DNA from: an uncultured Alphaproteobacteria bacterium
Lineage (GTDB): Bacteria > Pseudomonadota > Alphaproteobacteria > RF32 > CAG-239
Assembly (NCBI GenBank): GCA_944393175.1
Contig: CALXZH010000010.1
Coordinates: 2,733 to 66,732, forward strand
Length of the DNA: 64,000 nt
Direction of reading: 5' to 3'
Made by a program: the position numbers and the translations under genes. The notes beneath the pieces were generated by a model, which did no database searches, was not told the origin of the DNA, and was given only the letters and a program-made list of their open reading frames with translations. Of this stretch, positions 1,585-43,308 are shown piece after piece. The number at the start of each line of letters is the position of its first letter. The first letter of the stretch is position 1.

Positions 1585-1726
1585 AAACAAATTTTTTTAA
1601 GTTAAACATAAATTATAATGTCTGCAAGAGCAGATATTTTATGCAAAATAATAGTGAATTGGTCTGCATATGTAGCACAAATTTTAGGTTTGTAAATAGG
1701 TTAATAAAAAAATTTTTGGAAAAAAA

Positions 1727-2019
1727 CATTCGGCTTCGCCTCCGCTCAGTCTCGAACTCTAACTCTTTTTTGTGTTGTGAGTTCTCACTGGCCTCGTGTG
1801 GCCATAAAAAAATCCCTCCACTTGGGAGGGATGTTTTATGGCGCACTCGGCGGGGTTGGCTTCGCCGTCCTTCGCGGTGCCTTCGGCATTCGGCTGACGC
1901 CTCCGCTCAGTCTCGAACTCTAACTCTTTTTTGTGTTGTGAGTTCTCACTGGCCTCGTGAGGCCATAAAAAAATCCCTCCACTTGGGAGGGATGTTTTAT
2001 GGCGCACTCGGCGGGGTTC
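1727..2019. repeat. ~160-bp tandem direct repeat, two copies (1727-1886 and 1887-2019). Each ends with the 3'-terminal 19 nt of tRNA-Arg (tggcgcactcggcggggtt) and carries the tRNA terminator hairpin atccctccacttgggagggat.
   Basis: Near-identical 120-nt blocks at 1737-1858 and 1898-2019 differ at one position (gtgtggcc vs gtgaggcc). The unit is unusually GC-rich for this genome (ggcttcgccgtccttcgcggtgccttcggc). Confidence 0.85.
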
Positions 2020-2076
2020 GAACTCACAACCTTCTGATCCGTAGTCAGATGCTCTATCCAATTGAGCTACGAGTGC
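2000..2076 (-). tRNA. tRNA-Arg (anticodon ACG)
   Basis: Reverse complement GCACTCG-TA-GCTC-AATTGGATA-GAGC-A-TCTGA-CTACGGA-TCAGA-AGGTT-GTGAG-TTCGAAC-CCCGC-CGAGTGC-G-CCA. The T-stem has one A.C mismatch and one G.U pair. A terminator hairpin follows on the minus strand at 1968-1996. Confidence 0.75.
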
Positions 2077-2311
2077 ATTAATGCTTAACGGAATTCTTAA
2101 TAACCCGATTCAAATAATTTTGCAAGCAAAAAATTCATTTAATTTAAAAGAATTTTAATCTATTTCATTTATGCTACGCTTAATTCGGAGATATATTTAT
2201 TCTTAGACATTATTTTCTCGCCTTTTTTTGAAAATTTACCTTTACAAATTGAGAGTTTAGTGTCAAAAACAAATATGTCATAACATGGGTTTCAAAAAGG
2301 TATTTTGACAG

Positions 2312-3565: not shown

Positions 3566-3957
<392 letters not shown>

Positions 3958-37204: not shown

Positions 37205-38656
37205 ATGGCTGACGAAGCTACTATAATAAACAATTCTGTTCAAGACCAATGGGGACAGATTTGCAGCCAATTAAAAAATGAAGTCGGTGAAACTGCTTTT
37301 GACAGTTGGTTAAAACCGCTTACTCCGGGTTCCTTTTCTGACGGCGTAATGAATATTTGTGTGCCGACGCGTTTTATGCGCAACTGGGTCATCACCCATT
37401 ATTCCGACAGAATCCACAAAATTTGGGAAAAGAAAAACCCCGCCATTAAAAGTGTTAATTTTGTGGTTCAAGCTATGCAGGACGAAGCTAAAGGTCTTTA
37501 TAATCCTTCCTGCCGCTCCTTATTGAAGAAAATTTCTTCAAGTCCTTCTCCTTCGAATATTTATCAAAGCGGTATTAATTCCGTTTTGGCTAACAATAAT
37601 GATTTTCAGGTTAGCGGAGACAGCCAACAATCCTTATCCGTTCCTTTGAATCCTCAATATACTTTCGATAACTTTGTGGTCGGCAAAACAAACGAATTTG
37701 CTTATGCCGCTGCAAGAAAAGTTGCCGAATCCAGAAATGTTTCTTTTAACCCGTTGTTTTTATACTCCGGCGTTGGTTTGGGCAAAACACACTTAATGCA
37801 CGCTATTGCTTGGCACATTAAACAACAAGACCCGACCAGAAACATTGTTTATTTGTCAGCTGAAAAGTTTATGTATAAGTTTGTTCGCGCTTTGCGTTAC
37901 AAAGATACTACAGCTTTCAAAGAACAATTCCGTTCCGTTGACGTTTTGATGGTTGATGACGTTCAATTTATGGGCGGCAAAGACACCACTCAAGCAGAGT
38001 TCTTCTACACCTTTAATTCTTTGATTGAGGAAGGTCGCCAAATCATTATCTCTGCCGACAAATCTCCTTCAGATTTGGAAGGTATCGAGGCTCGCCTGAA
38101 ATCTCGCCTCGGTTGCGGTTTGGTTGCCGATATTCATCCGACGGATTTTGATTTGAGAATGGGAATTCTTGAAAATAAGGCTCGCCAGTTGGGTGTTGAA
38201 CTACCGCAAAAAGTGGCTGAATTTTTGGCTCAAAAAATTACTTCTAACATTCGCGAACTTGAAGGCGCTTTGCGCAGAGTTATCGCTCACTCTCAACTCT
38301 TGTCTGACAAAGAAATTACTTTGGATATGACACAAGATGTGTTGAAAGATATGCTGCGCTCTTTTGATAAACGCACAACTATTGATGAAATTCAAAAGAA
38401 AGTGGCCGAACACTTCAATATTTCGGTTAAAGAAATGCAATCTTCTCGCAGAGCTCGCACGGTTGCCCGTCCAAGACAAATTGCCATGTATTTGGCTAAG
38501 CAACTGACTTCTCGTTCTTTACCCGAAATCGGACGCAAGTTTGACAGAGACCATACAACCGTCATGCATGCCGTTCGCAAAGTTGAAGAGTTGATTTTGG
38601 AAGATGCTTCTTTGGCAGAAAACGTTGATGCTTTAAGACGTGCTTTGGAAGCATAA
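37205..38656 (+). CDS. dnaA: Chromosomal replication initiator DnaA.
   Basis: AAA+ Walker A GVGLGKTHL, sensor motifs, C-terminal DNA-binding helix ...HTTVMHAVRKVE. A 480-bp AT-rich upstream region (36719-37204) precedes it. Confidence 0.95.
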   Translation: MADEATIINNSVQDQWGQICSQLKNEVGETAFDSWLKPLTPGSFSDGVMNICVPTRFMRNWVITHYSDRIHKIWEKKNPAIKSVNFVVQAMQDEAKGLYNPSCRSLLKKISSSPSPSNIYQSGINSVLANNNDFQVSGDSQQSLSVPLNPQYTFDNFVVGKTNEFAYAAARKVAESRNVSFNPLFLYSGVGLGKTHLMHAIAWHIKQQDPTRNIVYLSAEKFMYKFVRALRYKDTTAFKEQFRSVDVLMVDDVQFMGGKDTTQAEFFYTFNSLIEEGRQIIISADKSPSDLEGIEARLKSRLGCGLVADIHPTDFDLRMGILENKARQLGVELPQKVAEFLAQKITSNIRELEGALRRVIAHSQLLSDKEITLDMTQDVLKDMLRSFDKRTTIDEIQKKVAEHFNISVKEMQSSRRARTVARPRQIAMYLAKQLTSRSLPEIGRKFDRDHTTVMHAVRKVEELILEDASLAENVDALRRALEA

Positions 38657-42387: not shown

Positions 42388-43308
42388 ATGAAGACAAAAG
42401 CTCCCCGTAATAAAACCTTGGAGCTCAACAGGGCACAGACGCATACTTACGCCGCGCAAGCACTCAAACTCAAAAGACAAGCCAGTTTACCGGAAGTTTT
42501 GAACCAAATTATTTGGCAAGACGCTTTTAAGGCGATTGATTTGTTGCCTGAAAATTCGGTGGATTTGATGATTGTTGATCCGCCCTACAATCTGACTAAA
42601 AACTTTGGAAAATCCGTTTTCAAAGAAATGGGGCTGAATTCTTATAAAGAGTGGTTGGATTCTTGGTTGTCTAAGACGGTGCGTCTTCTCAAGGATAATG
42701 CATCCATCTATATTTGTGCCGATTGGAAAACATCTATTGCCATTCCTGAGGTGGCCGGAAAATATTTTTTGTTGCAAAACCGAATTTCTTGGGAGAGAGA
42801 AAAAGGCAGAGGCGCCGCAAACAACTGGAAAAATTGCTTGGAAGATATTTGGTTTTTTACCAAAGGAAAAGATTATACCTTTAATTTGGATAATGTTAAA
42901 ATTCAGCGAAAGGTCATTGCCCCTTATCGGGATAAGTCCGGTTTGCCAAAAGACTGGGTGCAAAACGATGATGAAAGATACCGTTTGACAGCTCCTTCAA
43001 ATATTTGGACGGATATATCTATTCCCTTCTGGTCAATGCCGGAAAACACCCCTCACCCGACGCAAAAACCCGAAAAACTGATTGCTAAACTTATTTTGGC
43101 CTCAAGCAACGAAGGTGATGTGGTGTTTGACCCGTTTGTCGGCTCTGGAACCACCGCCGTTACCGCAAAAAAACTCAGGCGCAATTTTATTGGTATTGAA
43201 AAAGAGCAAGAATATGTTGCTTTGGCCCTCAAGCGCTTAGAACTGGCTGAAGAATTTCCAGAAATTCAAGGATATGAAAACGGAATTTTTCGCGCCCGTA
43301 ACGGATAA
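42388..43308 (+). CDS. ccrM: Beta-class N6-adenine DNA methyltransferase, CcrM-like. No adjacent restriction enzyme, so an orphan MTase.
   Basis: DPPYN motif IV precedes motif I (HPTQKPE...DPFVGSGTT), which is the beta-class order. Lacks the C-terminal ~80-aa extension of Caulobacter CcrM. Confidence 0.7.
   Translation: MKTKAPRNKTLELNRAQTHTYAAQALKLKRQASLPEVLNQIIWQDAFKAIDLLPENSVDLMIVDPPYNLTKNFGKSVFKEMGLNSYKEWLDSWLSKTVRLLKDNASIYICADWKTSIAIPEVAGKYFLLQNRISWEREKGRGAANNWKNCLEDIWFFTKGKDYTFNLDNVKIQRKVIAPYRDKSGLPKDWVQNDDERYRLTAPSNIWTDISIPFWSMPENTPHPTQKPEKLIAKLILASSNEGDVVFDPFVGSGTTAVTAKKLRRNFIGIEKEQEYVALALKRLELAEEFPEIQGYENGIFRARNG

Follow-up and report, generated by a model that had tools for sequence, protein, structure and literature searches.

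A GC-rich tandem repeat that carries the 3′ end of a tRNA gene raises the question of whether it is the scar of an integrated element, a trivial local duplication, or a genetic unit in its own right. We address this question for a repeat directly behind the tRNA-Arg(ACG) gene of an uncultured alphaproteobacterium of the CAG-239 lineage, located in a stretch of 64,000 nt of contig CALXZH010000010.1 that we refer to as the window and whose coordinates are used throughout. Our analysis indicates that the repeat is probably a tRNA-distal repeat of the RtT type, the kind known from the tyrT and tyrV loci of Escherichia coli, and that it consists of one full and one truncated unit. On this reading, the RtT class gains a divergent member of variable copy number, in a lineage and at a tRNA that are new for it, and the repeat is not the scar of an integrase, nor is it a trivial duplication.

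Tandem Repeats Finder places the repeat at 1727–2018 with a period of 161, 1.8 copies, 97% matches, and a score of 561, and a repeat search returns two 121-nt copies (1737–1857 and 1898–2018) that are 99% identical. The 19-mer TGGCGCACTCGGCGGGGTT, the complement of tRNA-Arg nucleotides 76 to 58, is found at exactly two sites (1839–1857 and 2000–2018), against none expected by chance in 100 shuffles, and the proximal site is the 3′ end (nucleotides 76 to 58) of the minus-strand tRNA-Arg(ACG) gene itself, which spans 2000–2076. At both 1812–1832 and 1973–1993, a terminator scan identifies the hairpin ATCCCTCC-N5-GGAGGGAT, behind which the tRNA strand has a run of T. The GC content is 0.57–0.60 over 1801–1950 and 0.22–0.33 in the flanks. 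An earlier account of this locus that drew on the letters alone (the sequence-only reading) had described a tandem duplication bearing the tRNA-Arg 3′ end and its terminator, set off from an AT-rich background, and these searches bear out both the duplication and the contrast in composition. Some of its details need adjusting. The 19-nt end is present in both copies as described, but it does not close the first copy, since 29 nt (1858–1886) come after the distal 19-mer; likewise, the palindrome ggcctcgtgaggcc attributed to both copies is present in the second and imperfect in the first (ggcctcgtgtggcc).

In the direction of the tRNA, the locus reads tRNA, a 112-nt trailer, the 29 extra nucleotides, the 19-nt tRNA-end copy, a second 112-nt trailer, and then unique flank. 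The identity between the units reaches 112 nt past the 19-nt tRNA segment into the native trailer, and of the 141 nt that separate the 19-mers, 112 duplicate that trailer. No further copy of the Arg unit sequence is found elsewhere in the 64-kb window. Because the two-unit allele is also present on independent contigs from other samples (L092 and L095), it is not an assembly artefact. The tRNA-Arg(ACG) gene is intact: it is called by ARAGORN and scores 62.3 bits with the Rfam tRNA model (threshold, 29), so the covariance-model check that had been proposed for its function returns a normal value. The A·C mismatch that had been noted in the T stem is real (A52·C62), but the idea that it marks a replaced 3′ half is refuted. 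All 27 of 27 tRNA-Arg(ACG) genes from the clade have it, whether they bear a repeat or not, and the neighboring pair covaries within the clade (G51-C63 to A51-T63); the mismatch is therefore ancestral and uninformative on the history of the 3′ half.

In the organization that we propose, a unit would comprise, in the direction of the tRNA, the terminator of the tRNA itself, an inverted arm complementary to the tRNA 3′ half, a T-arm piece up to nucleotide 58, a GC-rich body, and tRNA nucleotides 58–76 with the CCA. The parts of the window array all lie on the minus strand. Behind the last 19 nt of the tRNA-Arg gene (nucleotides 58–76, at 2000–2018), a proximal trailer (1967–1999) holds the intrinsic terminator, with its stem at 1973–1993 and then the T run. 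There follows a proximal inverted arm (1935–1966; ATGGCCTCACGAGGCCAGTGAGAACTCACAAC), a degenerate reverse-complement copy of tRNA nucleotides 76 to 46 that includes a perfect 11-nt complement of G46-C56. This arm aligns to its own tRNA with a score of 22 and to other tRNAs with scores of 18 or less, and in RNA folds it forms the 5′ side of the unit's closing helix. The segment at 1913–1934 consists of an A-rich loop (1925–1934) and a direct pseudo T-arm piece (GTTAGAGTTCGA, 1913–1924) that mimics tRNA nucleotides 46–58. The GC-rich body of the full unit (GACTGAGCGGAGGCG...GGCGAAGCC, 1858–1912) is delimited by alignment with single-unit contigs and by homologous ends in L021, L207, L153, and E. 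coli; its distal 29 nt (1858–1886) are missing from single-unit alleles. An exact copy of tRNA-Arg nucleotides 58–76 (AACCCCGCCGAGTGCGCCA) stands at 1839–1857, where E. coli units end in an equivalent 19-mer, and by analogy with the E. coli RNA RttR, this copy would form the 3′ end of the RtT-like unit. The distal, truncated second unit (1727–1838), defined by repeat searches and by alignment with single-unit alleles, then runs into unique flank. It comprises a terminator stem (1812–1832), an inverted arm (1774–1805), a pseudo T-arm (1752–1763), and the first 25 nt of a body (1727–1751), and single-unit alleles retain the same kind of truncated unit.

The E. coli tyrT repeats have been known since the late 1970s and the RtT RNA since 1991. 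In E. coli K-12, a 178-bp unit is present 3.1 times behind tyrV and once in the tyrT-tyrV spacer. Every unit ends in the 19-mer AATCCTTCCCCCACCACCA, which is nucleotides 58–76 of tRNA-Tyr; of its six occurrences, those in the units have a T in front of them and those in the genes a G. The order within a unit is inverted arm GGGGAAGGATGAGAAGCTTCGA, loop CCA, AGGTTCGA, a body that runs from CTCGAGCG to GCTGAGT, and the 19-mer, and the annotated 3′ end of the RttR RNA is exactly the CCA of the first partial tRNA copy. The Rfam RtT model (RF00391) scores the E. coli units at 133–138 bits, and in its consensus structure, the inverted arm pairs with the tRNA-end copy to close the RNA.

The layout of the Arg unit, including the junction, matches that of the 178-bp tyrT/tyrV repeats that encode the RtT/RttR RNA. 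Both are tandem units directly behind a tRNA, each ending in an exact copy of tRNA nucleotides 58–76, and both have their junction in the T loop after ...TTCG. An inverted arm, a short loop, GGTTCGA, a GC-rich body with a central hairpin, and the tRNA-end copy succeed one another in that order in each, the closing helix is formed by the inverted arm and the tRNA-end copy, and the copy number is fractional (3.1 in E. coli and 1.8 in the window). The Arg unit (1727–1999) also lies directly behind tRNA-Arg on the same strand, as in the definition of RtT. The two systems differ in their host, which is alphaproteobacterial here, and in their tRNA, which is Arg(ACG) and not Tyr. The window unit is shorter (161 nt versus 178 nt, with a body of 55 nt versus ≈68 nt) and has no tpr-like ORF, and unlike the E. 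coli units, those in the window have a strong intrinsic terminator immediately behind the end of the tRNA. RtT-family RNAs adjoin Asn, Lys, and other tRNA genes in Pasteurellaceae, and the copy differs between Erwinia strains (PMC4986893, PMC7542023). A possible modulation of the stringent response has been discussed for the RtT RNA, whose function is unknown (PMC4986893, PMC7542023, 10.1101/2024.07.17.603846), and both the origin and the function of the E. coli tyrT repeats are still described as unknown (PMC7542023). In mobilome sequencing of E. coli, the exonuclease-resistant signal is elevated over tyrT-rttR (10.1101/2024.07.17.603846). A literature search on tRNA-fragment duplications found nothing specific. 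The RtT kind of repeat is already known, the lineage and the tRNA are what is new, and the novelty is modest.

The route to RtT was a weak Rfam match (14.6 bits) on one metagenome unit, L192. A covariance model termed R2, built from seven alphaproteobacterial and metagenome units without E. coli, detects all four E. coli units at full length (29–34 bits; E values of 2e-5 to 2e-4 in the 234 kb searched) and does not report ordinary tRNA genes. In the opposite direction, the Rfam RtT model matches both units behind tRNA-Ser of the same species at full length (17.7 and 17.9 bits), with the matches ending at the CCA of the partial copy; the E value is ≈0.85 over 4227 families and ≈2e-4 for a single family, as applies to a prior hypothesis. 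The inverted arm reads TGAGAAC, instead of the T-loop complement TTCGAAC, in E. coli, the window, L021, L014, and L070, a shared derived detail that supports common descent. The window unit is 75% identical to L021, which is itself matched by R2 (E value of 0.006), and ≈56% identical to E. coli in a global alignment. Its fold pairs the inverted arm with the tRNA-end copy at −43.4 kcal/mol (z = −2.9).

Several observations weigh against the assignment of the Arg repeat to the RtT class. The Rfam RtT model has no match in window positions 1700–2080 at E ≤ 10, so that the gathering score of 45 bits is not reached, and R2 has no match to the Arg unit at the same cutoff; we ascribe both results to a unit that is too short and diverged for either model. 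The Arg unit is tied to the family only through intermediates (L021) and motif-level alignment, the cross-match scores owe part of their value to the tRNA-derived segments, and all Rfam RtT matches outside E. coli lie far under the gathering score of 45. An nhmmer profile of the alphaproteobacterial units gives a nonsignificant E value of 2 against E. coli and is inflated by loci selected with an 18-mer. A strong intrinsic terminator stands between the tRNA and the unit, no promoter was found, and an RtT-like RNA at this locus is a prediction. The CCA end is paired in the predicted window fold, whereas the E. coli RtT tail is free. Conceivably, the resemblance arose by convergence, through repeated local duplication of tRNA ends. 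At gathering thresholds, Rfam reports only tRNAs and the rpsB small RNA in the window and seven loci.

The architecture recurs at other tRNA genes. A tRNA-end unit accompanies all three tRNAs of the window and, shortly before its start in the same species, tRNA-Ser. Behind tRNA-Ala(CGC) (990–1065), an analogous plus-strand unit spans 1066–1272, with the tRNA 3′-end copy at 1251–1272 and, on the minus strand at 1147–1249, an element of a second family that we call 'GCTAAGC'. Behind tRNA-Ala(GGC) (3566–3641), an analogous 1.6-unit array occupies 3642–3954 on the plus strand, with a minus-strand 'GCTAAGC' element at 3722–3824 and a 17-nt tRNA 3′-end copy that starts 183 nt past the gene (≈3825–3841); L001, L002, and L011 have one unit at this locus. 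An extra exact tRNA-end copy, defined as an exact 13- to 14-nt copy at most 400 nt away and not within another tRNA, is present at 30 of 124 tRNA loci, in 25 of 58 related species. These 30 comprise 16 3′ copies downstream and 14 5′ copies upstream, and degenerate arrays supply cases beyond the strict loci. Units of like order stand behind Arg, Ser, fMet, and, partially, Ala(CGC) tRNAs, and on metagenome contigs behind Ser, Pro, and Glu tRNAs. The unit layout is found behind tRNAs of at least seven anticodons (that of Ala(CGC) being partial) across the clade and related metagenome contigs.

The junction falls in the T loop at nucleotides 57/58, give or take one, in all units. The terminator is succeeded by an inverted, partly degenerate copy of the 3′ half of the local tRNA (starting TGG...), a short loop, GG(G/A)TTCGA, the GC-rich body, and an exact copy of tRNA nucleotides 58–76, often with the terminator again. 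The direct GG(G/A)TTCGA piece corresponds to the 5′ strand of the T stem and the T loop up to nucleotide 58, and it precedes the body in all units of the G family as well as in E. coli. At unit-bearing loci, the inverted arm is closer to the local tRNA than to other tRNAs. The body is common to different tRNAs and species and consists of the start CTAC.AGCGA.AGGC, a central hairpin with compensatory changes, and then GCCGGTGAGCGAAGCGAA. The window body is a shortened version of it with a recognizable start (GACTGAGCGGAGGCG) and end; both the start (CT.AGCG.AGGC) and the end (GGCGAAGCC|AA) recur at other tRNAs, the latter also in the tRNA-Glu unit of an unrelated metagenome contig. Homologues of the 29 extra nucleotides are found in the body ends of units at other tRNAs, so that these nucleotides are the distal part of a family-specific body rather than filler. 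A metagenome scan with a body 18-mer returned 120 loci, only 6 of them near tRNAs, the rest being chance matches in GC-rich genomes.

Some of these other loci deserve mention in their own right. The tRNA-Ser(GGA) gene that lies shortly before the start of the window has two full 185-bp RtT-like units and a truncated third behind it (L001:1011–1400), and its 19-nt end is present three times, the gene copy included. The same locus in L002 has one unit fewer than L001, across a run of N. For the tRNA-Ala(CGC) unit, L019:13195–13390 and L023:13100–13175 form a clean pair of filled and empty sites. The loops of the second and the first terminator copy of L019 are reverse complements of each other (TTTAT versus ATAAA), a pattern suggestive of hairpin-mediated template switching.

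The number of Arg units varies between strains. The source is a gut bacterium, its relatives are metagenome-assembled genomes labelled 'Proteobacteria bacterium CAG:495', 'Candidatus Scatocola', and 'uncultured Azospirillum', and conspecific contigs with identical flanking proteins derive from several samples. The window, L092, and L095 carry two-unit alleles, and one-unit alleles are found in L001 with L002, in L093, and in L091, so that the single-copy site for which a search of related genomes had been suggested does exist. Relative to these alleles, only 29 nt of the unit are extra. The units can be told apart by two single-nucleotide polymorphisms (SNPs), one with GACGCC versus TTCGCC and the other with GTGAGG versus GTGTGG, of which the one-unit alleles show three combinations. 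The L091 allele is a SNP chimera of the proximal and distal units of the window, and L092 has one SNP homogenized between its two units. The L093 allele fits a crossover at the 19-nt core; those of L001 and L002 need another parent allele, such as L095. Two processes between the 131-bp direct repeats, unequal homologous recombination and gene conversion, have thus altered the unit number between strains. The recombinant SNP patterns point to unequal homologous recombination as the way in which units are gained and lost, and because L091 is chimeric between SNPs outside the core, its crossover was a homologous one inside the repeat, not an event at the core site. The one-unit alleles are arrays reduced to a truncated unit. 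Within each genome, the tRNA-end copy and the terminator are identical to the functional copy, yet they differ between species, and they therefore evolve in concert. The sequence-only reading had offered an excision remnant or a miniature element as the source of the repeat; the latter accords with a family of such units at other tRNA genes, whereas the former is not supported, given the chimera of both units in L091.

For an RtT-type unit, a course of events can be sketched by analogy with E. coli. Read-through of the tRNA terminator would give a structured RNA of ≈130 nt, the inverted arm would pair with the tRNA-end copy to close it, and the tRNA-processing machinery would trim its 3′ end at the pseudo-tRNA CCA. 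Selection for an RNA whose closing helix is preserved offers the simplest explanation of why the inverted arm is specific to its tRNA, and such selection suggests that at least some units are expressed. The most economical way for a unit to arrive at a new tRNA would be short-homology recombination or template switching inside the T arm, a route favored by the constant position of the junction in the near-universal sequence GGTTCGA|A. Conceivably, a dedicated enzyme serves this step instead.

A direct repeat from the T loop to the CCA is reportedly described by Williams (2002) as the att signature of tyrosine integrases, and insertion by an integrase was what the sequence-only reading had proposed. 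On such an account, the Arg repeat would be the scar or miniature derivative of an integrase-mobilized element (a prophage, an integrative and conjugative element, or a cis-mobilizable element (CIME)) at the T-loop end of tRNA-Arg, with the 19-mers as attL and attR cores and all but ≈140 bp lost. We consider this quite improbable, even though the signature is classic for integrases that target tRNAs (PMC9897764), the 19-nt repeat begins at nucleotide 58 in the T loop as expected of an element with a tRNA attB, one-unit alleles exist, and the terminators flanking a unit differ in L207, L153, and L210 as if an element had brought its own tRNA end. A Pfam search of the 40 larger ORFs of the window finds core genes only (parE, rpsB, tsf, dnaK/J, lon, dnaA, dnaN, recF, gyrB, polA, and others) and no integrase, transposase, or reverse transcriptase family. 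No island lies between tRNA-end repeats at ≈120 tRNA loci in 80 related genomes. Similarity to phages, plasmids, and viral contigs is likewise absent, both in blastn searches (the Arg unit against phages and the Ala-type element against plasmids) and in an exact-pattern scan of viral contigs, and insertion by an integrase is accordingly not supported. The identity of the units, moreover, reaches 112 nt beyond the core into the native trailer and starts at nucleotide 58, so that just three of the seven T-loop positions are common; the chimeric one-unit allele of L091 records a crossover far from the core; and the RtT consensus structure includes the tRNA-end copy as an integral, paired segment. 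The Arg locus does share with the attL/attR repeats of islands, including integrase-less CIMEs, a partial tRNA 3′ end downstream of an intact gene and alleles without one repeat. However, att repeats flank kilobases of foreign DNA with an integrase (9–23 kb in examples; PMC9897764), whereas here ≈140 bp, mostly a copy of the native trailer, lie between the repeats, the 40 ORFs searched include no recombinase, and loss appears to proceed by homologous crossover.

If no integrase was involved, the head-to-tail arrangement of copies that are 97% identical, their polymorphic number, and the absence of the unit sequence from the rest of the window might be put down to a one-off local tandem duplication, by replication slippage or unequal crossing-over, that is unrelated to any element family. 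This is very improbable, as the junction holds 29 nt that are missing from one-unit alleles and homologous to body ends at other tRNAs, one-unit alleles still keep the inverted arm, the pseudo T-arm piece, and a truncated body, and recurrence of the architecture at all three window tRNAs, at tRNA-Ser upstream, and in many species contradicts a single event. That same recurrence could instead reflect an active nonautonomous element that inserts site-specifically in tRNA loops (at nucleotides 57/58 of the T loop or, for a second family, nucleotides 21/22 of the D loop), regenerates an intact tRNA, and depends in trans on an HUH or IS200/605-like enzyme, a recombinase, or an RNA-guided enzyme. 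Such an element, which we judge unlikely, would account for junction positions that are constant across unrelated tRNAs, bodies common to different tRNAs and species beside local tRNA-derived flanks, the strand-specific conserved structure of the 'GCTAAGC' family, the orientation of every examined copy toward the intact tRNA, the closer resemblance of copies within a genome than between orthologous sites, and the lack of terminal inverted repeats and target-site duplications evident by inspection. On the other side, neither a transposase nor an autonomous copy is found in the sequences examined, the local flanks and the within-genome similarity are accounted for by gene conversion and the concerted evolution that it brings, the arrays look old and vertically inherited within the Arg lineage, and selection on an RNA helix accounts for the tRNA-specific inverted arm. 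With respect to the features of miniature inverted-repeat transposable elements, the only inverted repeats are the tRNA-derived arms, the junction overlap is 0–2 nt, and the Arg unit is single in the window.

The units can also be compared with the repetitive extragenic palindromes (REPs) and bacterial interspersed mosaic elements (BIMEs) of enterobacteria, which are likewise small GC-rich hairpin modules in AT-rich intergenic DNA, behind genes and beside terminators, and whose mosaic combination is seen here in L207 and L079:14675–15205. Unlike the units described here, REPs and BIMEs are without tRNA-derived ends and are not tied to tRNA genes. The Rhizobium-specific intergenic mosaic elements (RIMEs) are comparable mosaic repeats between genes of rhizobia. 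One study has linked rtT-like sequences to a dispersed enterobacterial repeat cluster (PMC2965389).

A number of further candidates were rejected. Integron attC-like sites have their boxes in the wrong orientation here and do not fit in sequence, and a crossover by a P4-type integrase in the 7-nt T loop is at odds with identity that starts at nucleotide 58. Elements of the IS200/IS605 type or with bridge-RNA or omega-RNA guides were dismissed because no enzyme was found and copies within a genome do not differ by target. Retrotransposition was discarded as no reverse transcriptase was found and the terminator is duplicated too. Orientation follows the tRNA and not parE, which disposes of a replication-strand bias, and tandem-inversion duplication by template switching alone fails to explain bodies common to several tRNAs.

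The second family is represented behind both tRNA-Ala genes of the window, in units of ≈200 bp that end in a tRNA 3′-end copy and contain an element of ≈105 nt starting (T/C)GGCTAAGC. Of the 30 copies that a profile search for this 'GCTAAGC' element finds, 29 adjoin a tRNA gene. Other species have the element on the upstream side of tRNA-Ala or tRNA-Thr, immediately behind a copy of tRNA nucleotides 1–21; in the window, it is downstream and antisense, after a copy of nucleotides 60–76. Its 3′ end faces the intact tRNA in every copy examined. RNAalifold yields 28 pairs, 16 with compensatory changes, and the 26 G·U pairs against 2 A·C pairs mark the structure as strand specific. The element has no Rfam match. 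One copy (42.9 bits) is part of L079:14675–15205, a 530-nt BIME/RIME-like mosaic in which hairpin modules are repeated between genes, away from any tRNA gene. A broader and quite tentative proposal is that RtT-type units and the 'GCTAAGC' family together make up a widespread, undescribed class of small structured modules that colonize tRNA operons across Proteobacteria; such modules would copy the local tRNA end, keep the tRNA intact, spread via the T or D arm or through a loop-specific enzyme, and give RNAs that mimic the acceptor end of the cognate tRNA.

The presence of this architecture in uncultured gut Alphaproteobacteria, with the T-loop junction kept and with copy variation within a species, argues for an ancient or repeatedly regenerated feature of tRNA operons and no mere curiosity of E. 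coli. The alphaproteobacterial units, in which the inverted arm tracks the sequence of each tRNA, can also be compared with one another to define which core of the RNA is conserved. What merits further work is how broadly the phenomenon extends, the constancy of the T-loop junction, and the second ('GCTAAGC') family. On the practical side, the units break short-read assemblies at tRNA genes, yield spurious ORF calls, and can pass for att sites. The public assembly of L092 calls a 146-aa gene across the repeat (L092:1741–2181, corresponding to window 1641–2081) that runs antisense through tRNA-Arg. This gene is an annotation artefact due to the GC-rich repeat.

Some observations concern other parts of the window and its relatives. 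The segment 36333–41161 holds dnaA (37205–38656), dnaN, and recF, with gyrB further on (50628–53069); the window therefore spans a replication-origin region, and the 870-nt noncoding gap before dnaA may hold oriC. An ORF at 42388–43308 encodes an N6/N4 DNA methyltransferase (Pfam N6_N4_Mtase) with no recognized restriction-gene neighbor, the adjacent ORF having no Pfam match, and it may be an orphan CcrM-like methylase. A 42-bp tandem repeat (15648–15812; 3.9 copies, 91% matches) lies within a 955-aa ORF (15459–18326) that has no Pfam match. Finally, the initiator tRNA-Met genes at L082:8191–8267 and L088:303–379 have a T stem, GTTGG/CCTTC, with two U·U mismatches that are kept in both related species.

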